Shown here: positions 4,600-36,838 of the stretch, one piece after another
Position numbering within the stretch: position 1 is the stretch's first letter
How the letters are laid out: every line of letters starts with the position of its first letter
Virus genome (UHGV): UHGV-0278542
Source: a virus
Length of the DNA: 44,996 bases
Strand: one strand, 5' to 3'
The notes under the pieces: generated by a model
Told to the model about the DNA's origin: nothing
Database searches by the model: none
The model's input: the letters and a program-made list of their open reading frames with translations, nothing else
Made by a program: the position numbers and the translations under genes

Positions 4600-5473
4600 T
4601 ATTCTGTTGCGCCTCTGCTCTTTGTTCCGCTGTTCTGGCGGCAATACATATTGAGTGCCATGAACCATTTGGCATCCATGATGATAATTCATGCCGAACG
4701 GAGGTTAACTTATACCTTCCGCTTGCATGTGGTAGTTCTGTTTTGATATCCACATATCTTCCAATGCAAAGGAGAGATGAATATTGCGTCTGAAACATCA
4801 GTCCCCCATTTGAAAATACAGGATATCCAACAAGTCCGTATTCTCTGGATATAAACGGAATTACATCGTCTCTGTTTTTTTCTGAAGGCCAGAACTCTAC
4901 TTTTGTAGGTGGCGTAGCTGACATCGCCAGTCCATAATCTGAACAGACCCTATAAAGTTGCTCAAAAACACTTCCTTCAAAATGCGGACTTCCTGATGTT
5001 GTCATCCCTTTTACATTATTAAACACAGCTTCATAACCTGCACTTGCACAAATGGATGAGATGACATCTTCAACACTTTGCGCCCCCTGCGCTGTAAACG
5101 GGCTTGCTGCCATGTTCTGTAAATCAACATTAGGAGAGGCTGTTATCATCAGACTGCTTTCAGGAGCAGAATTCATGTTTGCTATTGATGAAAGCATCGT
5201 GCCGGAGAAAACAAGAGAATCATCAGCAAATACCTCAACATTTAACTTCTGACCTTCCCCAACAATACCATCAGCCTTCCCTGATATATCAGCAAGTCTT
5301 TCGATTCCTAACCCGTAAAGAGATATATCAGCCTGAGCACCTCCCCGACCGGTAACAAAATTCAGGGATACTGTTGACTTAACATTTCTGATGGAGATTT
5401 TATTGTTTCCATTTTTATCAAATGCTGATGATTCATTCGTGAAGTCAAACCGAAGAATGTGATTTTTATACAA
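4592..5473 (-). CDS. Baseplate/tail protein, putative (start uncertain, possibly TTG at 5473; track ORF extends to 5581)
   Basis: ORF track 4592-5581; long overlap with the upstream 100-aa ORF suggests a later start. Confidence 0.4.
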   Translation of the reverse strand: MYKNHILRFDFTNESSAFDKNGNNKISIRNVKSTVSLNFVTGRGGAQADISLYGLGIERLADISGKADGIVGEGQKLNVEVFADDSLVFSGTMLSSIANMNSAPESSLMITASPNVDLQNMAASPFTAQGAQSVEDVISSICASAGYEAVFNNVKGMTTSGSPHFEGSVFEQLYRVCSDYGLAMSATPPTKVEFWPSEKNRDDVIPFISREYGLVGYPVFSNGGLMFQTQYSSLLCIGRYVDIKTELPHASGRYKLTSVRHELSSWMPNGSWHSICIAARTAEQRAEAQQNNG

Positions 5474-5768
5474 GCTCGTTTTCCTCGATGTAATACAGCA
5501 AGTAACGGCTACCCAAGCCTTCCCATCGCGGGTCCGATTCCCCATCATTATCAATGAAAATAAGGTCTCCCTTAAATCCAAGGTAGGAATATCTTACCAT
5601 CTTATTCCCATGCAGACATGGAACGCCCTGCATAATTGGGACTTCATTAACAGTTAAATCCATGTACATAAAACTCTGTCGCTGAACAAGTTTTATATTA
5701 CATTGCTGACCAGCCAGACTTACCGAAATGGACTGAGATTTGCTGGGAAGAACAGATACTGTAATCAT
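5466..5768 (-). CDS. Small tail protein, hypothetical
   Basis: 100-aa ORF, ATG at 5768 overlapping upstream stop (ATGA). Confidence 0.4.
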   Translation of the reverse strand: MITVSVLPSKSQSISVSLAGQQCNIKLVQRQSFMYMDLTVNEVPIMQGVPCLHGNKMVRYSYLGFKGDLIFIDNDGESDPRWEGLGSRYLLYYIEENELV

Positions 5769-6580
5769 GTACTCGCCTTAACTATATTTTTTGCAATATC
5801 TGCCGCTTTTTTTGTTGCGCTGTTTGTGACTTCGAGTATTGGTTTGGATACCGTATCAAGAGCACTCTGGAATTCAGTCTTGATTGTGTCTGAAATTTTT
5901 CCAGTGATTCCGCCAACAGATGATTTCAGTGATGACCATGATTTACTTAGTTCATCGACAGTGGACTCCCTGGCTCCGCCGTTGGTTATTTGCGGATCAA
6001 CGCCTACCTCCCCCTGTGACTTGTTGTTATCCGTTGGCTTCTGTTCTGACTGAGAGCCAGAGAGGATAACCTCCATTTGCTGAATGACCTCCTGAAAATC
6101 AAGATAAACCGTCAGAAGAGTCACCCCTTTTTGAGAGTTAACTTCGTAATAGTGGTCAACAAGGTCGAAACTCTCCAGAGTTTCCTTTGGCGTTTCAATA
6201 TCGTATGTTTTTGCAGAGGACAGCATCGTTTTGATTGTGTTCAGCGTGCTGTTCTGGCTTGTGAATGTGAGATCGAAAATATTCGGGATATTGCCGGAAA
6301 AACCAGTAAGACCATTTACGATGATTGCGCATCTTACCCTGGCGGGTTCTTTAACTTTGTTGATGGACTGGTATTTCCCTTTCTCCACCGGAGCGTTTGT
6401 TATTTGCGCCCTGCCACTTGGCTGCACGGATGCCATACCACTGAACTCAAGAGCAACCTCGCCAGTTTCCCTGTCACGAATCACATACTGAGGATGCAGA
6501 ACGCTGTCGATGATCGAAAGCGGAGAGCCACCACCGATAGCATTGAATATGTCTGCTGTGTTTAAATCGATTATGCCCAT
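5765..6580 (-). CDS. Tail protein, hypothetical (Mu gp43-like position)
   Basis: 271-aa ORF, ATG at 6580; first gene after the ant cassette in the tail operon. Confidence 0.45.
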   Translation of the reverse strand: MGIIDLNTADIFNAIGGGSPLSIIDSVLHPQYVIRDRETGEVALEFSGMASVQPSGRAQITNAPVEKGKYQSINKVKEPARVRCAIIVNGLTGFSGNIPNIFDLTFTSQNSTLNTIKTMLSSAKTYDIETPKETLESFDLVDHYYEVNSQKGVTLLTVYLDFQEVIQQMEVILSGSQSEQKPTDNNKSQGEVGVDPQITNGGARESTVDELSKSWSSLKSSVGGITGKISDTIKTEFQSALDTVSKPILEVTNSATKKAADIAKNIVKAST

Positions 6581-6636
6581 CTACTCTCCATTAAACAAAA
6601 ACCCAGCCGAAGCTGGGTCGTTGCGTTGGTTATCTG

Positions 6637-7566
6637 TCAGTAGTTATGTACTGAAGGAGGTAATTCTTTATTCTTAAGTCTCATCCATGCGGAAAGATTC
6701 GTTGGTCCGTCTGGCTCATTGATATCAACATCTCGTGTGTGGTTTATTAAAACGTCTCTCGCCATTCCGATAACATACGAGAACTCATGACCGTAGTCGT
6801 AGCATCTGCCGGAATAGTTCGATTGAATTTGTTTTAGCGCCGGATACAGTTCGCGGAATAATGCCTGTGAGCGGTTGGCATAATCCCATAGCCATACAAG
6901 GCTGTTTGCTTCTTTTGCAGAAAGCTCGTTGGTTTTCTTCTCTTGTTTGCCGATGAACTCACCTTCAAGTGGAACTCGAGCTGCAAGTGACAGTGCTTCG
7001 GCAAACTGCTCCTCACTGATTTCTTTGTATGAACACCCAAAATGAGATTTCAGTGACGACCACATGGTGATCATCGCCTGCGCCTGTTTTTCTTTTGGCA
7101 GAGACTGACCGCGACTCATGACGAGTTGTTTAATAGCTTCCTGCTGTTCAGTGGTGATTTTACCCGGCAATGCCTTTTTAGCTTTGCGCGGGTTAACCAC
7201 ATGGCCTTTAGTCCAGTATTCGTATAGCACATCGTCACACTCTTCCTGATACTGGATTACCTTGTCGCGGATTTCAGGGCGGACTTTGTTAGGACTGATG
7301 GTTTGCAGCCAACCTGCAAGTTTGCGTAAAGCAAGACAGATAACCAAACGACGCTGAGTATCGCCGGGGAGCTGAATCATCATTTCGATGATGCAGGTCT
7401 TAAATCTCTCCATCAACTTGCGGTGTTGAGACTGCCAAGTCATACCCATTCCTTCAACGATAGGTTTCATTGGGGTATACGGTTCGCCGTTGTGATTGAC
7501 AACATAAAGCTCTGCGCCGTGGAATGGTACGTTGATAGTAGATACCGCTGTTGCTATACTTTTCAT
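6637..7566 (-). CDS. ant: Antirepressor Ant-like protein (AntA/KilAC-type N-terminal region)
   Basis: 309-aa ORF; N-terminal sequence [34 protein letters not shown] resembles phage antirepressor N-domains; preceded by an Arc-like gene and divergent from an Mnt-like gene, as in P22 immI. Confidence 0.65.
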
Positions 7567-7632
7567 GTCAGTTTTTCCTCAATACTTACTGGCGATTTAA
7601 GCCCTAGATACTCGCAATATCTGGGGCTTTAC

Positions 7633-7779
7633 TCATTCTGGACAAACAATCCCGTCCTTAGCTACCGACTCCTTAAGCCTCCTCAACACCTCATTGCTGA
7701 ATGACCGATCATCCTTTTTCGCTGACTGCTCCAAAGCTTTTTCGAGCCATTCTGGCATCCTTAACGTTTTTACTTTCAT
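7633..7779 (-). CDS. arc: Arc-like ribbon-helix-helix repressor (48 aa; below the ORF-track size cutoff)
   Basis: Hand-translated MKVKTLRMPEWLEKALEQSAKKDDRSFSNEVLRRLKESVAKDGIVCPE; AGGAG 6 nt upstream of ATG; directly upstream of ant. Confidence 0.5.
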   Translation of the reverse strand: MKVKTLRMPEWLEKALEQSAKKDDRSFSNEVLRRLKESVAKDGIVCPE

Positions 7780-7884
7780 TTTCGCTCCTTTGGTATGCGG
7801 TACGCATACATAGTATGTAGGTACGCATTGATAGTCAATAGATACCTACATATCCTGTGGTAAAAAATTATTCAGGATATGCTG
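7780..7884. promoter_or_regulatory. Divergent promoter/operator region between arc-ant and the mnt-like gene, with nested palindromes
   Basis: Inverted repeats atgtaggta...tacctacat and attga-tag-tcaat, plus a repeated gtacgcat element, in a 105-bp intergenic region. Confidence 0.5.
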
Positions 7885-8127
7885 ATGTCTGAACGCAGGT
7901 ACAAGAACCCACAAGTTAATCTTCGACTTCCTGTGGAGATAAAGGATCGCCTAACCGCGTTAGCTGAGGCGAATGGCAGATCTTTAAATGCAGAAATGGT
8001 TGCAGCTCTAAGTGCATGGGCAGGAGAAAATAAACATGTTCACTCGCTTAGCCTTTCTTCCTTAACCGAAAGATTAATAGCTCTTGAGAGAGAGGTTGCA
8101 GCCATTAAGGAAGCAAACATCAAGTAA
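7885..8127 (+). CDS. mnt: Mnt-like ribbon-helix-helix repressor
   Basis: ORF track 7879-8127; N-terminal NLRLPVEIKDRLTALAEANGRSLNAEMVAAL resembles P22 Mnt/Arc RHH motif; about 80 aa; divergent from arc-ant. Confidence 0.55.
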   Translation: MSERRYKNPQVNLRLPVEIKDRLTALAEANGRSLNAEMVAALSAWAGENKHVHSLSLSSLTERLIALEREVAAIKEANIK

Positions 8128-8150
8128 GAAGACGATATTACGAGGTTGCT

Positions 8151-8618
8151 ATGGCATGTCTTAGCAAGGAAGAAAATGAAATCATCAATGTAGAATTTAA
8201 AAAAACATCAGCAGATGAGTTGTTGATAATCAAGAAATTAATTATCGATGTTAAGAACCATAAAGGGCTATACCAAGATGTCGTAAAGCATGGTCGAAAC
8301 CTGTACAACTCAAAGAATAACATCATTCAAGAAACCGGACTTAGCGAAAAGATATCTGGTCGTCTTGCTATGATCCTTTGGTCTATCACTAATCCTGAGG
8401 TTGAGGCGGCACGCCGATTAAAGATTAAGATCACTGAGGCAACGTGGGTGTTTGAGGATTTCCTATGTAAACATCCCAGTCACCGCAATCTCAATGGCAA
8501 AAAGTACTCTATTCGTAAAGGAATCAGGATCGGCTTTTTCAAGCACATCCACCCAGGACAACTTGTAGGGTGTGGATGTTTATCTAGACCCATAATTCCA
8601 GGATTAAAAAACTCTTGA
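8151..8618 (+). CDS. Hypothetical protein with a MuF-like C-terminal motif
   Basis: 155-aa ORF, GAGG RBS; C-terminus HPSHRNLNGKKYSIRKG...HPGQLVGCGCLSRPIIPGLKNS parallels the C-terminus of the head-morphogenesis protein at 19513-20331 ([17 protein letters not shown]...[22 protein letters not shown]). Confidence 0.5.
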   Translation: MACLSKEENEIINVEFKKTSADELLIIKKLIIDVKNHKGLYQDVVKHGRNLYNSKNNIIQETGLSEKISGRLAMILWSITNPEVEAARRLKIKITEATWVFEDFLCKHPSHRNLNGKKYSIRKGIRIGFFKHIHPGQLVGCGCLSRPIIPGLKNS

Positions 8619-8627
8619 TAGTAGTAA

Positions 8628-8867
8628 TTAATTTCCATCAAGAGCAGCAAGCAGCGAAGTGCGCAACTCTTCTTGAGTCATTTTCAACTCTCCGCTCTTT
8701 GTTTGCCGGCGAAGATCATCGACCACCATTTTGGTGAATTCTGTAGGGGTAATCTCACTCTCGATAGAGACCTCTCTCCCGAGAAGCAATGCTATCCCAC
8801 CCAAAATTAGGCTAAAGGCATTACCAATATTTTTTAACGATGGAGTGTAAACGATGGAAAGTTTCAT
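8628..8867 (-). CDS. Hypothetical small protein (79 aa, one hydrophobic segment); alternative to the full 161-aa track ORF
   Basis: C-terminal part of track ORF 8628-9113 reads protein-like from the internal ATG at 8867; the N-terminal part looks like antisense of the + gene. Confidence 0.3.
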   Translation of the reverse strand: MKLSIVYTPSLKNIGNAFSLILGGIALLLGREVSIESEITPTEFTKMVVDDLRRQTKSGELKMTQEELRTSLLAALDGN

Positions 8868-9204
8868 TTTTACCGTCCGACAAGAAGATGTTGAATCATT
8901 GAACGAAGCAATGCAAACATGGGGGCTAGAACATAAGCCACATGTAACACTAGCATTCGACAGCTCGTCTCCACCAGAGTGGGTGCAAGTAATTGTTAAC
9001 GGAATAACAAGCCCTGCGGCAATGAATTGTTTATCTGCTGCAATTGGATATTTCGTCGCCAGAAACAAGGGGAAAAAGCTAGAGATACAAACTAACGACG
9101 GGAAAAGATTCATCGCTGAAGGGTTTAATCATCGTGAAATAAGCGCCTTACTGAGCGAATGTCAAGATCATATCGTTGTCAATAATGATGACAAGCCCAC
9201 CTGA
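8854..9204 (+). CDS. Hypothetical protein
   Basis: 116-aa ORF with GGAG 9 nt upstream of ATG; AT-rich cargo region. Confidence 0.4.
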   Translation: MESFIFTVRQEDVESLNEAMQTWGLEHKPHVTLAFDSSSPPEWVQVIVNGITSPAAMNCLSAAIGYFVARNKGKKLEIQTNDGKRFIAEGFNHREISALLSECQDHIVVNNDDKPT

Positions 9205-9270
9205 GTAGGCATTGCGTGTTTTTTCTTCATTTAATGGGTAGAATCATCAAAACAGCACAAGGATTATAAT

Positions 9271-9729
9271 ATGAAGAAATCATATATTCGTTATGCCATT
9301 CCTATTGTCTCCTCTTGGCTATTCTTAGCTTCGGCGTATGGAGAAGAAGGACTTATTCCACCAGATCATGTCACCAAGGAAGCTGAGATTGCTTGCATTG
9401 GGTTGGCTCAAAAATACGCTTCTGAATCAAGAAGATTTAACCCTGATGACATGAAAAAATTCGTCATGGAACAAGCGAATGATTGTCGAGTTTTTTTGTC
9501 ATACTCAATCTTCAAGCCCAATACTGCAAGCATAATTTTAGATAAGATTGAATCTGACTATGGTCGTTTTACTCCAGATGTATCCGAGGAAGAGGCCAAG
9601 TTCAGAGACTATTTTCACAAGAACATCATGTCAGGTGCACAAGAAGCAGCTAAAGATAAGGCTTTTAGAGATGAAATGGTAACACTTGGAGGTTTTGCCA
9701 TTGCTTCGCCATCCCATCGCAACTTTTAA
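9271..9729 (+). CDS. Hypothetical secreted protein (N-terminal signal-peptide-like segment)
   Basis: 152-aa ORF; N-terminus MKKSYIRYAIPIVSSWLFLASAYG; AAGGA RBS; convergent with the tape-measure gene. Confidence 0.5.
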   Translation: MKKSYIRYAIPIVSSWLFLASAYGEEGLIPPDHVTKEAEIACIGLAQKYASESRRFNPDDMKKFVMEQANDCRVFLSYSIFKPNTASIILDKIESDYGRFTPDVSEEEAKFRDYFHKNIMSGAQEAAKDKAFRDEMVTLGGFAIASPSHRNF

Positions 9730-11505
9730 CTATCTAACACCACTTGAAAATGCCTGATTTACTGATGATCTGCGATTCAACTCCTTAAATCCTTCGGTTA
9801 ATTTTGAGGATTGATCCGTTTTGGCAATTACCTTTACCTCTCCTATGTGCTGGCTGTTGTAATTGTTAACAACGCTTTGGGCATAGGATTGGTTTGCAGA
9901 TCCATTAGCCAATCTTTGCTGGGTTTGGTAGTACGCGGCATTGCTATTTTTCGTTGGGTTACCATAATCAAGACCCCGCCTCCAATTTGAATAACCTTCA
10001 TGTCGTGCCATGTAGGAACTTAATTTAGCCATAACAGACGGGTCTGAAAGGTCGAGTTTTTCATTTGCATCAACCCCCATTGCCTTAGAAACTTGCTTTA
10101 TGTATGAGGCGGTATCGTTTTCTGAAGGTGGAGCCCATTTCGTAATAATACCGTTTATAGTGTTAAGTTTATCTCTTGTGTAATACAGAGATAATTGCCT
10201 TCTTGCTGCTTCCCATCCTGACTCATCATCAGTGTACTTCGCAAACCCTCCAGAATCCCTACCGGCATTACCTTTAGTTCTAAGATTTAATGGGTTGAAG
10301 TTTCTATCCGCTCTTGTTTTCCCTGATGGATTTGTTGGTACATCCTGATTTGGATCTTCATATTCAATATTGAATAATCTTTCGAACCAGTGCTGCTGAA
10401 AAAACCAAGGCCTTTGTGCATCAGGAACATCTTTATACTGGTCTTGTACCATCTGCCCAAAAATACCAACAGCACCGATTAATCCCAGCTTGCTTCCTAA
10501 CCCCTTGCCGCTAAGAAGGGCCATGGCAGCAAGAATGCCCAATGCGTTTCCAGCGCCACCAACGGCTTTAACAAAACCATCAATACCTGTACTCAGGTTC
10601 CTGAAGAACCCAACAATGTCACCCTTGTTGTTTTTCAGCCACTCTAAAAACTCCTGTTCTGCTTTAAGCACTTCAGGGCCAAATGTAGCCATTAATTCTT
10701 GTTTAACCTGAGCAAATTGCGAGTCAAGGGCTTTAGTCGTAGCAAGAATATTACGCTGTGCTTCTTCCTGCTCTTTGGTCATCTGCCATCGTTTTTCTTC
10801 CTCAGATACCATCTGCACAGCTTTTCCGCTTTTAATATCCCCGGCAAGATTAGGGTCATAACCAAAAGCAGAAAGCACTTGCATTAACTGTTTCTCGTTA
10901 TGGTTCTTCCCATATTTCTGAAATTCCGCCAGAGCATCTTCAGATTTACCTCCAAGCTTACTAATATCAATGCCTGTTCTCGCTCCAGTTGTTAGTAAAT
11001 TCTGAGCCTCCGGTGTAAGTCCGCCGAAAATTGTTGGGTCTTCTATATTGGCAAGCGCCATCCTGGCGCTCATCTGAGCCCCAAGGAACGCGCCGCCGTT
11101 CTGACCAATTCGGGAGAATCCATACTGAGTACCAAGAACGTTACTGGCGCTTGTTCCAAGCATTCTCCCCATATTACTGGCTCTTACAATTGACTCCGAA
11201 GTACTTTCAAATGCACGGTGAATGCCAATTGCTACGGCAGTCAACACACCGCCAACAGCCACAAAGCGTGTCGAAAGCCCCAAAAAACCATTAAATGAAG
11301 CAGTCAACCCTTTCATTGCAACAGCAGCTTTGTCGGTCTCCTTAGCCGTTTTGGACATTGAGGAGGTTGTTGACCTTTCTATCGCAGATGAAGATCTCTC
11401 TATTTCGTTTTTAAGGTCTTGTGCTTCCTGCTTTACTTTCCGTTTTCCATTCAGGAATTCATCGGCCTTAATTGTGACCTTGTAGGCCAACTCATTGATA
11501 ATCAT
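9730..11505 (-). CDS. Tail tape-measure protein, putative
   Basis: 591-aa ORF after two small chaperone-like ORFs and downstream of sheath/tube genes; coiled-coil N-terminal half. Confidence 0.55.
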   Translation of the reverse strand: MIINELAYKVTIKADEFLNGKRKVKQEAQDLKNEIERSSSAIERSTTSSMSKTAKETDKAAVAMKGLTASFNGFLGLSTRFVAVGGVLTAVAIGIHRAFESTSESIVRASNMGRMLGTSASNVLGTQYGFSRIGQNGGAFLGAQMSARMALANIEDPTIFGGLTPEAQNLLTTGARTGIDISKLGGKSEDALAEFQKYGKNHNEKQLMQVLSAFGYDPNLAGDIKSGKAVQMVSEEEKRWQMTKEQEEAQRNILATTKALDSQFAQVKQELMATFGPEVLKAEQEFLEWLKNNKGDIVGFFRNLSTGIDGFVKAVGGAGNALGILAAMALLSGKGLGSKLGLIGAVGIFGQMVQDQYKDVPDAQRPWFFQQHWFERLFNIEYEDPNQDVPTNPSGKTRADRNFNPLNLRTKGNAGRDSGGFAKYTDDESGWEAARRQLSLYYTRDKLNTINGIITKWAPPSENDTASYIKQVSKAMGVDANEKLDLSDPSVMAKLSSYMARHEGYSNWRRGLDYGNPTKNSNAAYYQTQQRLANGSANQSYAQSVVNNYNSQHIGEVKVIAKTDQSSKLTEGFKELNRRSSVNQAFSSGVR

Positions 11506-19512: not shown

Positions 19513-20331
19513 CTATTTATTTTGTAGTCCGGGGATGATTGGTGACCACGTGCACCGACAGTTGATAGCCTCGCCGGGTAACACCCATTCACCATCGAGA
19601 TACAGCCCCTTATCGAGGTCGAACTCTTTTCCATCTGCTTTCACGTGGGATGGCCTTGGTTGCTTCCCGGCGTGTGAGTGTCGCCAGATGCCTTTGGTGA
19701 TGCCTAACTTCTTCTGCCGCTCAGACTGAATTACCGCTGTAGCTTTGTTGTTCTGGTCGCGTGCAATCGTCTCGGCGCGTCTGCGAGTAATGCCATATCG
19801 CTTAACCAGTTCATCAGTGAGATAGCCAAGGTCACGACCACGGCTGACAGACTGCATGACTATCGTCTCAACCTGTGTGTGATAGTGTTCAGGTATGGAT
19901 TTAATCAGGTTGACGTTCTCGTTAATGACAGCCTGCATCACGTTTTTAATCTCGTCATTCATCGTGAACTTAACGGTAAAGCCGCCAGCCTTCAGCGCAG
20001 AATGAAGAGAGACATCAGTATTGCGCAGCGTCTTATCGACGAAGCGATCTGCCAGTTTCTTGGCAAGCTCATTGAACTTGCTTTCCCACTGCTTTCCGAG
20101 CTTAGCCAGCCTGCGCTTTAACTCATCTGCCGGACTGGCATCCATCGCCATGCTGTCTTTGTATGCAGCCTCAAGCCAGTACCGGTAAGACTTATTCATC
20201 TCACTGACCAACTTGAGAAGCTCAGATCGATACCACTCATGAACTCCGGCGTTAGCTCTGACTGGACGAAGGGTTTTCCGGGTCTTCGAATCCTTCTTCG
20301 ATGGACTCGTTTTCGTACTCTTCTTCGTCAT
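19513..20331 (-). CDS. Head morphogenesis protein, MuF/SPP1 gp7-like
   Basis: 272-aa ORF immediately after the portal gene; C-terminal HxH...NCRC motif typical of MuF-family minor head proteins. Confidence 0.6.
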
Positions 20332-33202: not shown

Positions 33203-33833
33203 TTCCAACCTCCGCATCAAAGCATTGGGCTTCAAGAGACTTAACCATCACCACACTGCCATCTGTATTAATAACTATCGATGAGTTATATTTGCTTATC
33301 AGTTGCTTCGCGTAATCAATTCCGGCGCGAATAAGGAAATTTTTCACCGCAGGAAGATGACCAACTACACTACCCAGACCTTGCTCTATAAGCTCCTCAT
33401 TAAGATCAAGCTCATTTTCATGGCGAAAAGAAATGAATGAGTCGTAAATTGCGTATTCTGCCGTCTCGCCATTTCTTTCAGGGCCAACCAGCGCCCTTAT
33501 TTCATTTAGAGATTCAGAAAGCTCATTATCTTCAAGCTTGAAAAACTCTCGATTATCACTAAGCCTCTCTTTTGCAAAGGCTTTATGAATGAGTTTTTCA
33601 TCTGATGCGGGATTATTTGAATGAAAGGCAGCTATCACCTTAAATGGCTTAGGAACGCCAGTAGAGGCTGAAATTTCTTTAGCCCTAACTTCTGGTGAAT
33701 GCTTAGTCATCCCAATCTTATAAATTCCTGGCATGCACTCATTCGAAAGCACATAAACAAAGCCATTTGATTTAAAATCATCTGGCACCTTCATGCTCTT
33801 CAGAACCTGGAATTTGTCATTTTCGTATGTCAT
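33189..33833 (-). CDS. T5orf172/GIY-YIG-like domain protein (214 aa) inserted between cII and O
   Basis: N-terminal NGFVYVLSNECMPGIYKIGMTKHSPEVRAKEISASTGVPKPFKVIAAFHSNNPASDEKLIHKAFAKERLSDNREFFKL fits the T5orf172-type pattern; AGGAG RBS; 3' end overlaps the O start by 14 nt. Confidence 0.55.
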   Translation of the reverse strand: MTYENDKFQVLKSMKVPDDFKSNGFVYVLSNECMPGIYKIGMTKHSPEVRAKEISASTGVPKPFKVIAAFHSNNPASDEKLIHKAFAKERLSDNREFFKLEDNELSESLNEIRALVGPERNGETAEYAIYDSFISFRHENELDLNEELIEQGLGSVVGHLPAVKNFLIRAGIDYAKQLISKYNSSIVINTDGSVVMVKSLEAQCFDAEVGNEPG

Positions 33834-33867
33834 AATTACTCCTGTGGATTGATCCAGTCTTTCTACA

Positions 33868-34146
33868 TCAGGCCTCGAAGAATTCGCCGTTCTTCGGGGC
33901 TTTTTCTTTTATCAGCATTCTGGCTACTTGCTTAGCCAGTTCCGCCAACTCCTCGTCTTCAACACCCCATTCAAGAACAGCCAGAAGCATGGCCATCTTT
34001 GGGATAAAGCTGTCTTTCCATCGCGAAATTTGCGATTCATTAATCCCTAACGCGTCGGCAACCTTTCGCTGACCACGTACAGCAATTCGATTCAGGATGT
34101 TGCTTGTAATTGCATTCGCTTTCTTGCGAGTACTTGTAAGTTGCAT
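33868..34146 (-). CDS. cII: Transcriptional activator CII-like
   Basis: ATG at 34146; ...GINESQISRWKDSFIPKMAMLLAVLEWGVEDEELAELAKQVA resembles lambda CII; located between nutR/cro and the replication genes. Confidence 0.65.
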   Translation of the reverse strand: MQLTSTRKKANAITSNILNRIAVRGQRKVADALGINESQISRWKDSFIPKMAMLLAVLEWGVEDEELAELAKQVARMLIKEKAPKNGEFFEA

Positions 34147-34225
34147 ATGTAAGTATTTCCTTAGATAACAATTGATTGAATGTATGCAAATAAATGCATA
34201 CACCATAGGTGTGGTTTAATTTGAT

Positions 34226-34562: not shown

Positions 34563-35279
<717 letters not shown>

Positions 35280-35429
35280 TGGGCAAGGTGTTCTGGTCGG
35301 CGCATAGCTGGTGAAAAAATTATTTAATGCGGTGTATTGGCTGATTGTAACCCCATGTAACATCTTGCCGTCACCATTTCGGTGGTTAGATTTTTAATAA
35401 AAAAAAACAAATGTATAGCAAGGTTTTTT

Positions 35430-35909
35430 ATGGATAAAATTAATTACCCACCCCTGTTTGAGCCAGGGTTCCATGACATGGATGAAGCTGGATTAAAATC
35501 GTATTGTGTCGATTGCTTTCCTTCATCATCCAGGCGAGGCATGCTATACTGTAATTTTATACAGCTACTCGAATCTATTCGAGAATTATCTGCTCAATAT
35601 GGCTGTTTTACAGAAATATGGGTTGATGGTTCATACACCACGTCTAAACCAGAGCCTGATGATATTGATATTTTGTTGGTATGTGACTATAGCAATATAA
35701 ACTCAATACCTGTCATGCTTCGGGGCCGCGTCGATAATTTGCTTGACCGAAACTACATCAAACAAAACTACAAAATTGATGTCCTACTACTCATGAAGAA
35801 TTTAGATGACCCTAACTATGATTATGAGTACTGGCGTAGTTACTGGCGCGGTTGGTTTGGTTTTGATCGCAGTGAAAACCCGAAAGGGTTAGTGAGGATT
35901 TTTTTATGA
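35430..35909 (+). CDS. Hypothetical protein with a minimal nucleotidyltransferase-like motif, first gene of a two-gene operon in the rexA position
   Basis: ATG at 35430 with AAGG RBS (track ORF starts at 35382); motif EIWVDGSYTTSKPEPDDIDILLV fits hG[GS]-x9-DxD; AT-rich; co-oriented with and downstream of cI. Confidence 0.55.
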   Translation: MDKINYPPLFEPGFHDMDEAGLKSYCVDCFPSSSRRGMLYCNFIQLLESIRELSAQYGCFTEIWVDGSYTTSKPEPDDIDILLVCDYSNINSIPVMLRGRVDNLLDRNYIKQNYKIDVLLLMKNLDDPNYDYEYWRSYWRGWFGFDRSENPKGLVRIFL

Positions 35910-36838
35910 ATGATAAATCAATGTTTAAAAATTGCGATAAACGCATTGATTTCATTCAAAAAGAAGTCGATGCAATGAAGCAAAACAAAACCAGGTCCTT
36001 TGCTGACATGCTTCTTTATCGCTCCATGGATTCTCATCTGAGCGATTTGAAGGCCGAAAAATTAAAGCAAGATAGTCGGCACCCACTTATCGATTTTTTT
36101 GAGCTGCGGCTGAAAGGCTCTGAGGTTGACTTTGGCTCTATTCCTTTAGAGCTGCTTGGGGCTATTTCAACAAATCTTGCAGCGCTAATACAAAGAGCAA
36201 CACACAAAATTGCCTCAGGCAAGGACTCAAAAAAAGTTCCCTACGACGTGAAAAGCTCCTTAAACCTCAGGCTGGCTGATTTATCCCCTGGGTCTACAAA
36301 ATTGGGCGTCACCTTCTCTACAGGAATAGCAGAATTAGTAGAAACAGTACCCAGCAAGGCTGTAAAAGGCATATTCGATTTGTTGTTAAGCGATGACGAC
36401 AACAACTTCATGAATCACGTCGCTGAAATTGGATACAATTCCACTGTAAGCCTTAAGAGAATCGTAGAGGAATGCGATAAACACAACTTAACATTTGATG
36501 CAAGTTGGACCGGTCCATTTAGTAATGGCACCAAGGTGGCAACTATTGACTCCAATAAAATTAAGTACTTGGTGAGTAGACTTACATCAACCATTTCATC
36601 CCCTCCCATTACTGAAACGGTTACAGGCGAACTGGTCGTTCTATCCAAATATGGGAAGCTGGAGCTTGATGTTGGTGGTGAACATTTAAAGGCTTCCTAT
36701 CCGATTGAAATGCTAGATTTAATACAAAAAAAACACAAGGTCGGACAGATTGTTTCTCTTTTAGTGGAGACTACTGAGATTCACAATGATCGCATAGGTC
36801 TGTACCGTAAAAACCATCTTGTTAAATCGGTTCTTTAA
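35906..36838 (+). CDS. Hypothetical protein (310 aa), second gene of the operon in the rexB position
   Basis: ATG at 35906 overlaps the upstream stop (ATGA), GTGAGGA RBS; no recognisable motif beyond a single Rx4H (YRSMDSH). Confidence 0.55.
   Translation: MNDKSMFKNCDKRIDFIQKEVDAMKQNKTRSFADMLLYRSMDSHLSDLKAEKLKQDSRHPLIDFFELRLKGSEVDFGSIPLELLGAISTNLAALIQRATHKIASGKDSKKVPYDVKSSLNLRLADLSPGSTKLGVTFSTGIAELVETVPSKAVKGIFDLLLSDDDNNFMNHVAEIGYNSTVSLKRIVEECDKHNLTFDASWTGPFSNGTKVATIDSNKIKYLVSRLTSTISSPPITETVTGELVVLSKYGKLELDVGGEHLKASYPIEMLDLIQKKHKVGQIVSLLVETTEIHNDRIGLYRKNHLVKSVL

Follow-up and report, generated by a model that had tools for sequence, protein, structure and literature searches.

The stretch of viral DNA considered here (UHGV-0278542, 44,996 nucleotides (nt), hereafter the window, with all its coordinates on the given strand) carries, between a tape-measure-type gene and the first baseplate gene, a cassette (6637-8127) which, judged from its sequence, is a complete and intact copy of the type of switch known in phage P22 as “immunity I” (immI). 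An earlier examination of the letters alone (the sequence-only reading) had proposed three open reading frames (ORFs) in this region, namely an antirepressor gene (ant), an arc-like gene and a divergent mnt-like repressor gene, and all three are found where it had placed them (Table 1). The flanking genes are also those it had named: on one side, 9730-11505 (minus strand) encodes a protein of 591 amino acids (aa) which matches lytic tail protein and tape-measure PHROGs and comes after the tube and chaperone genes, and, on the other, 5765-6580 (minus strand) is the first gene of the baseplate module, Dit-like and labelled 'phage baseplate protein' in RefSeq. The phage that harbours the cassette has a contractile tail and the lambda immC, and its late genes (Q, holin, Rz, terminase, portal, sheath, tube, chaperone, tape-measure-position and baseplate genes) are all on the minus strand, with ant and arc lying within this late operon and co-directional with it. 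The position inside the tail cluster was, therefore, correctly described, but not the oddity which that description implied, given that the immI of P22 also lies within the late virion operon. Each element of the P22 immI has a counterpart in the window, with the order and orientation that the sequence-only reading had suggested, and, by sequence, the arrangement runs from mnt, through putative operators with predicted divergent promoters, to arc, ant and a terminator.

Table 1. Features of the immI-type cassette, and of associated sites, in the window.
Feature	Coordinates	Strand	Basis
t_ant, intrinsic terminator downstream of ant, left cassette boundary	6600..6619	-	terminator scan, P22 identity
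ant, P22-type antirepressor, 309 aa	6637..7566	-	PF10547 + PF10548, phrog_245, P22 Ant identity
Psar-like promoter inside ant 5' end, antisense-reading	7532..7560	+	promoter scan, P22 Psar match
sar-type antisense RNA, complementary to ant ribosome-binding site and arc-ant spacer	7567..7641	+	Rfam RF00262, fold, covariation
arc-like ribbon-helix-helix repressor, 48 aa, first gene of arc-ant	7633..7779	-	PF03869
17-bp perfect palindrome (7-3-7), Omnt positional equivalent	7793..7809		position, conservation
Pant-like promoter of arc-ant	7810..7838	-	promoter scan, P22 Pant alignment
Large imperfect palindrome over both -35 hexamers, including Arc-operator position (Pant -35/-10)	7814..7852		18-nt arms, 83%
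Candidate Pmnt	7828..7856	+	weak consensus match
mnt-like ribbon-helix-helix repressor, 80 aa, divergent from arc-ant	7885..8127	+	PF03869, P22 Mnt identity
Cargo ORFs co-oriented with mnt, part of variable slot	8151-8618, 8854-9204	+	no family match
lambda cI repressor, presumed Ant target	34566..35279	+	237/237 identical to lambda cI; target role inferred

The Ant protein matches the two P22 antirepressor domains over their full length (PF10547, P22_AR_N, with 154.8 bits and 1.2e-45; PF10548, P22_AR_C, with 103.7 bits and 5.5e-30), as well as the PHROG Ant family phrog_245 (9.7e-96), and the NCBIfam search returned no model naming it. Its C-terminal third is near-identical to that of P22 Ant, and the gene shares 94% nucleotide identity over 742 bp with the ant of O157 lambdoid phages. 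The arc-like gene precedes ant by 66 bp, with the same orientation, and the two are presumably co-transcribed. Its product scores 25.1 bits against the Arc family (PF03869, cut-off 20.4), is 38% identical to the Arc of phage Edno5, and has copies 100% identical in two IMG/VR loci (L094 and L106); in a sister Escherichia coli prophage the ORF at the same position is called 'Arc family DNA-binding protein' by RefSeq, which already names the immI genes in these sister prophages. The mnt-like gene, on the opposite strand and 105 bp away from arc, also belongs to PF03869 (40.7 bits, for the frame from 7879) and matches the PDB entry 1mnt. The open frame begins at 7879, but the ATG at 7885 has a better-spaced AGGA and gives a gene of 243 nt, equal to the RefSeq gene length in a sister prophage. 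The C-terminal half of this protein has no sequence similarity to the tetramerisation domain of P22 Mnt and is a mosaic segment different from those of CUS-3 and Ec702, with a heptad-like stretch, LTERLIALEREVAAIKE, visible in the translation. In the NCBIfam search, both small repressors gave sub-threshold matches only. The alignment with the P22 proteins, which the sequence-only reading had proposed as a check, gave identities of 58% for Ant overall, 31% over 39 aa for Arc and 47% for the N-terminus of Mnt, and, with Ant and Arc-family Pfam scores above the cut-offs for all three proteins, the similarity on which that reading depended is there.

Three further elements of the switch, namely the sar antisense RNA, its promoter and the ant terminator, had been overlooked by the sequence-only reading. 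The Rfam model of sar (RF00262) matches end to end from the G at 7567, with 28.7 bits and an E-value of 8.8e-4 in the 451-nt stretch searched, whereas Rfam at its gathering thresholds gave no match in the whole window. Because sar was seen only in this local E-value search, we built our own covariance model (R1) from five cassettes and searched 93 sources with it; in most of them, the model places the element antisense to ant and abutting the ant start. Among 59 distinct sequences, 96.3% of the cells are paired and compensatory changes occur at 14 of the 19 pairs, compared with 83.2% paired in shuffled controls and 32-46% in slid ones; this alignment was fitted to the model, which biases the count toward the structure, but the margin is still large, and six compensated pairs are already found in the unfitted alignment of the five sequences. 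The plus strand folds as two hairpins (-24.3 kcal/mol, z -4.5, against z -2.3 for the opposite strand), and the loop of the first exposes a CCUC facing the Shine-Dalgarno sequence of ant. Conserved structure and position thus point to a sar-type element, although it falls below the Rfam cut-off. The promoter predicted for this RNA lies inside the first ant codons and is directed away from ant. It is sigma-70-like (TTGATA-17-TATACT with the TG of an extended -10, 10/12 matches), and both its extended -10, TGCTATACT, and the spacing to the first G of the RNA are those of P22 Psar and are conserved across cassette types.

On the other side of ant, the terminator scan found a hairpin with an 8-bp stem (5 GC pairs) and a T-run, whose 20 nt, GACCCAGCTTCGGCTGGGTT, are those of the annotated P22 ant terminator (16011), with no differences. 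The same hairpin is present in CUS-3 and YYZ-2008, and overall in 58 of the 145 loci retrieved with Ant. The homology to donor cassettes of podovirus and siphovirus phages begins at 6594-6597, while the homology to sister prophages with other slot contents stops between 6601 and 6633, and the CUS-3 record labels the stretch equivalent to 6594-6633 as 'bsq1 boundary sequence'. These limits suggest that the terminator hairpin serves as a boundary for recombination.

The region between the divergent genes (7780-7884) has the length of 105 bp and the nested or overlapping inverted repeats (7793-7809, 7814-7852 and 7840-7890) that had been described for it. The first of these, GTATGCG-GTA-CGCATAC, aligns column for column with the Omnt of P22 and stands directly after the putative Pant -10 (the palindromes of P22 and Edno5 are placed likewise); most of it is also conserved in L011 and L015, the relatives from Yersinia and Erwinia. 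The putative promoter of arc-ant (TTGACT-17-TACTAT) has its -35 and spacer conserved in these two divergent loci, whose Arc is ~60% identical. Since the promoter scan was not enriched overall (7 promoters found, against 6.3 expected in shuffles), the support for this promoter comes from position and conservation. The larger palindrome is, by position, the putative Arc operator, and within the region the motif ATGCGTACC repeats at 21-bp spacing and is conserved in the same two relatives. For mnt, the candidate promoter is TTGATA-17-TATCCT; a promoter arranged as in P22, in which the -35 lies on the downstream side of the Pant -10, was looked for in the control region and not found, and the arrangement is, thus, a possible wiring difference from P22.

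Some repeats in these control regions deserve to be described on their own. A 21-nt direct repeat (GGTACGCAT...) occurs at 7799-7840 with a spacing of exactly 21 bp, in such a way that the same 9-mer falls inside the palindrome at the Omnt position and inside the Pant spacer, and the Erwinia and Yersinia relatives have three phased copies of TGCGTACC; the 21-bp repeats may be shared or cooperative subsites. Additionally, the control regions of GF-2 (L010, 4248-4355) and YYZ-2008 (L007, 5206-5297) both contain ATGGTGCCAT and ATGGTGGCATTATGGCC, despite having Arc proteins only 37% identical to each other.

As a whole, the cassette is 88% identical in DNA to the immI of CUS-3 and ~90% identical to that of P22-like E. 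coli prophages, where it occupies the canonical podovirus site, a homology which, from the sequences, is well beyond chance. The 145 Ant-retrieved loci include 60 in a P22-like context and 17 between the lambda-type tail genes L and K. We consider it very probable, therefore, that the cassette is an intact second immunity module of the immI type, homologous to that of P22. Several observations weigh against this assignment. The N-terminal part of Ant is only ~40% identical to P22 Ant, the identities of the arc-like protein to P22 Arc (31%, with 39 aa aligned) and of the DNA-binding N-terminus of the mnt-like protein to P22 Mnt (47%) are low, and the operator sequences are unrelated to those of P22; because of these differences in operators and repressors, the operators had to be assigned by position. 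The candidate Pmnt is weak and, unlike in P22, stands back to back with Pant (the -35 hexamers abut). The 28.7 bits of the sar match are below the gathering score of RF00262 (43), which P22 itself exceeds widely (97.8 bits), the Rfam model appearing to be tuned to the P22 sequence. Finally, the natural role of Ant is unsettled even in P22 (PMC3121763).

When compared with sister E. coli prophages, the cassette lies in a variable slot (~6620-9200). The tail module is present in ~12 complete E. coli genomes, where the slot is filled variously by this cassette, by an ant that is split or truncated, by another Arc-family or YlcI set, or by genes with a P63C domain; in the window all the cassette ORFs are full length, while ant is split or truncated in some of the sister prophages. 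Two IMG/VR loci belong to the same lineage, and the same-lineage count is limited to them: L106 has the allele of the window (Arc 100%, Mnt 97.5%) and L152 has Arc and Mnt of the YYZ-2008 type (100%), so that, by sequence comparison, two specificity alleles occupy the same slot of one prophage lineage. Other loci apparently in a myovirus context were dropped, their similarity being only to the transglycosylase part of the tape-measure protein.

Downstream of mnt, the ORFs in 8151-9729 have no Pfam, NCBIfam or PADLOC family. The first one (orf8151, 8151-8618, plus strand) starts 23 bp after mnt and had no match in the PDB by sequence. It is, however, paralogous, as a separate gene, to the C-terminal ~110 aa of a MuF-like head-morphogenesis protein which the phage itself encodes (19513-20331), with 26% identity and an E-value of 2e-12, and it is also similar to that part of the protein in phages of Burkholderia and Klebsiella with such heads. 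The last one (9271-9729, plus strand) has 152 aa, a signal-peptide-like N-terminus and no family match, and abuts the tape-measure-position gene in an orientation opposite to that of the tail genes. Its DNA is ~99% identical in L005 and L006 from 9193-9212 on, where an annotated gene of equal length (459 nt) is found, and, because it is conserved with differing slot contents, it belongs to the backbone and not to the cassette.

The assignment of the prophage to the lambda immunity type also stands, since its cI is identical to lambda cI at 237/237 residues, and the DNA from OR to cro differs from that of lambda in a single base, which lies just after cro. The identity to lambda, near-complete on the side of cI, OR and cro, falls abruptly at the cII start codon (~33800-34210), so that a sharp mosaic junction separates the immunity region from the cII-replication genes, where a DnaC-like loader replaces lambda P. 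Right after cI, in the rexA/rexB position (35382-36838, plus strand), there are two genes matching the PADLOC candidate defence system PDC-M63 (PDC-M63A with 2.4e-41, DUF6932, and PDC-M63B with 7.5e-45), and this pair looks like a cargo swap in the cI operon.

The anatomy described above comes from the sequence, and from homology to P22 we infer each functional step of the circuit. In the lysogen, Mnt would sit on the 17-bp palindrome, where the arc-ant transcript begins, and keep ant silent, meaning that stable lysogeny would need both lambda cI and Mnt. Upon infection, or loss of Mnt, the arc-ant promoter would fire briefly and produce a burst of Ant, after which Arc would close this promoter, whereas sar, transcribed from inside ant across the ant ribosome-binding site, would block the translation of ant, including that from late read-through transcripts. 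Ant would bind cI-type repressors non-covalently and inactivate them, which could derepress the prophage itself, or co-resident lambdoid prophages, without RecA-dependent cleavage. Additionally, Q-modified late transcription would have to pass the cassette and its terminator in order to reach the baseplate genes. The idea of cross-talk between prophages, already raised by the sequence-only reading, is established biology, since P22 Ant is reported to inactivate lambda cI (PMC3121763), and the Ant of the window may act on lambda cI as well.

Other explanations for the cassette have to be weighed against this one. It could be an immI homologue with no role in the lysogeny of its own phage, either as a passenger that was recently acquired and is heading for decay, or with an Ant which is blind to lambda cI and acts on other prophages. 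Such a passenger would fit the high flux of the slot, in which sister prophages have an ant that is split or truncated, or P63C-domain genes unrelated to it. It would also fit that P22 can grow and be induced without Ant (PMC3121763), and that in Kapi1, which has a similar locus, mnt expression is undetectable in the lysogen (PMC12922286). Nevertheless, every part is intact in the window, including small ones which are quickly lost to decay (the 48-aa arc, the Psar -10, the sar pairing and the terminator), and because of this we find the explanation unlikely; the reported inactivation of lambda repressor by P22 Ant (PMC3121763) also speaks against it.

It is far less probable that the main selected role is the tuning of late transcription into the baseplate genes by the terminator and the bound repressors, with antirepression being secondary. 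There is indeed a strong terminator between ant and the baseplate genes, and a similar role was suggested for the levels of the P22 tailspike (PMC2629481), but the same tail genes occur in the sister prophages of strain SC407, with a slot devoid of any Arc-family gene or antirepressor, and of strain Z1323CEC0013, with a truncated ant only, and the joint conservation of ant, arc, mnt and sar would be left unexplained. We give even less credence to the mnt-like gene and orf8151 forming a toxin-antitoxin system or a similar two-gene addiction or defence pair. The short gap of 23 bp between them, their common orientation and a weak RelB-like antitoxin match (NF048017, 22.3 bits) could suggest it; however, this score is far below the cut-off of 50, orf8151 matches no toxin or defence family in Pfam or PADLOC and resembles the C-terminal part of the head-morphogenesis protein, the gene after mnt varies between otherwise near-identical cassettes, and the N-terminus of the mnt-like protein, at 47% identity to P22 Mnt, belongs to a gene that faces the arc-ant operon. 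With the family tests failed and orf8151 being a MuF-like paralogue, this possibility was rejected.

Returning to the cassette as an immI-type module, it appears, from sequence comparisons, to be a mobile 'ant moron', bounded by its terminator and exchanged by recombination among the tail operons of podoviruses, siphoviruses and myoviruses. This agrees with Villafane et al., who used that name for the region and found ten types in sixteen P22-like genomes, with high flux (PMC2629481). According to Lemire et al., P22 Ant also acts on the repressors of phages L, lambda and 21, and may couple the induction of co-resident prophages (PMC3121763). Putting these elements together, we tentatively advance a broader picture, as possible and not as probable, of a portable, terminator-bounded immI unit which is always placed just downstream of DNA-delivery genes (the ejection proteins in podoviruses, and the tape measure in siphoviruses and myoviruses). 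In this picture, several types of Arc, Mnt and operators would share the Ant C-terminal domain, forming a second network of cross-immunity and cross-induction, independent of immC, among the prophages of an E. coli strain, and the control region might differ from that of P22 in having back-to-back promoters and ATGCGTACC every 21 bp, possibly read by both repressors.

Much of this was already on record: the module and its mobility were known, as were its location in virion operons and its presence in this slot in related myoviruses, and Ant had been reported to act on lambda repressor. The setting is ordinary as well, given that related phages carry the same type of cassette at the same spot; a literature search joining antirepressor, tape measure and baseplate found nothing specific. 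What is added here is the description of the sar RNA, Psar and t_ant, of the limits of the cassette, and of a single prophage lineage with two specificity alleles. In practical terms, silencing of the prophage probably depends on both lambda cI and Mnt, and its Ant could relieve repression in lambda-immunity and other lambdoid prophages with no need for DNA damage, which would be relevant for prophage induction and gene transfer in strains with several prophages. The cassette also illustrates how a single regulatory module passes between tails of three architectures, with a conserved terminator as the point of exchange. Annotations should include the sar RNA, Psar and t_ant, while the current understanding of immI is unchanged and the importance of the case is small beyond correct annotation.

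Of the known systems, the P22 immI is the reference, with the same gene order and orientation, an Ant 58% identical, Arc and Mnt of the same Pfam family, a conserved sar fold and Psar -10, an identical terminator hairpin and a 17-bp palindrome after the Pant -10, which in the window is a predicted one. It lies between the ejection-protein gene 16 and the tailspike gene 9, co-directional with the late virion operon. The two differ in the length of Arc (48 aa in the window and 53 aa in P22), in the operators and the Mnt C-terminal half, which are unrelated, and in the promoters, since Pmnt and Pant overlap fully face to face in P22, while those predicted in the window are back to back. Furthermore, P22 has c2, whereas the phage of the window combines a contractile tail with lambda immC.

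The cassettes of CUS-3 and of the prophage of E. coli strain 702/18 are much closer, with DNA identity of 88-90% over a stretch that starts at the terminator, covers ant, arc and the operators and ends within the part of mnt encoding the N-terminus, and with the same operator region; Arc is identical in loci of the 702/18 type and 60% identical in CUS-3. In these phages, which are of the podovirus type, the cassette is flanked by the ejection-protein genes and the tailspike gene, and the Mnt C-terminus and the downstream cargo are not those of the window; CUS-3 has, additionally, an extra ORF of ~200 bp between arc and ant. CUS-3 was described as apparently lacking arc in the work on epsilon34 (PMC2629481). 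In its record (L001, CP000711) we observed, at ~5270-5410 on the minus strand, an unannotated arc-like ORF upstream of ant, ~60% identical to the Arc of the window, with which it shares the N-terminal MKVKTLRMPE, and falling within the feature annotated as 'bsq2 boundary sequence'.

For the virion half of the genome, a megablast search found no close isolated phage (the best was Vibrio phage IKEMa6-1, 69.6% over ~3 kb), and the relatives of the virion module were found at the protein level, the nearest isolated ones being the Edwardsiella myoviruses Edno5 and GF-2 (Gofduovirus), with amino-acid identities of 75% and 73% in the sheath and 66% in the first baseplate protein. Both have mnt on the minus strand, with arc and ant on the plus strand, in the same slot (from the lytic tail/tape-measure gene to the first baseplate gene), together with a lambdoid cI/cro/cII early region, and for Edno5, Ant, Mnt and Arc had already been reported as a P22-like ImmI region, beside cI/cro/cII (PMC6372524). 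In RefSeq, their mnt-like genes are labelled 'partition protein ATPase' (Edno5) and 'Arc-like transcriptional regulator' (GF-2). Their antirepressors, however, are of another family, with only faint N-terminal similarity to the Ant of the window, their Arc and Mnt are 38% identical to those of the window, and the immC regions differ.

The lambda-like prophages of O157:H7, such as YYZ-2008, share with the window the C-terminal two-thirds of ant (94% identical in DNA), the terminator, a conserved sar-like element, and arc-like and divergent mnt-like ORFs, the whole being inserted in the tail operon between L and K, downstream of the tape measure. They differ in having a siphovirus tail, Arc and Mnt of another specificity type, and different operators. 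In the YYZ-2008 record (L007, NC_011356), both small ORFs are unannotated, the arc-like one at 5035-5208 (minus strand, 57 aa) and the mnt-like one at 5292-5636 (plus strand, 114 aa). Finally, the trans-acting antirepressors of the Gifsy and Fels prophages are small unrelated proteins, under LexA or prophage-repressor control and without an Arc/Mnt/sar circuit, but they resemble this system in that the inactivation of non-cognate repressors couples the induction of co-resident prophages (PMC3121763).

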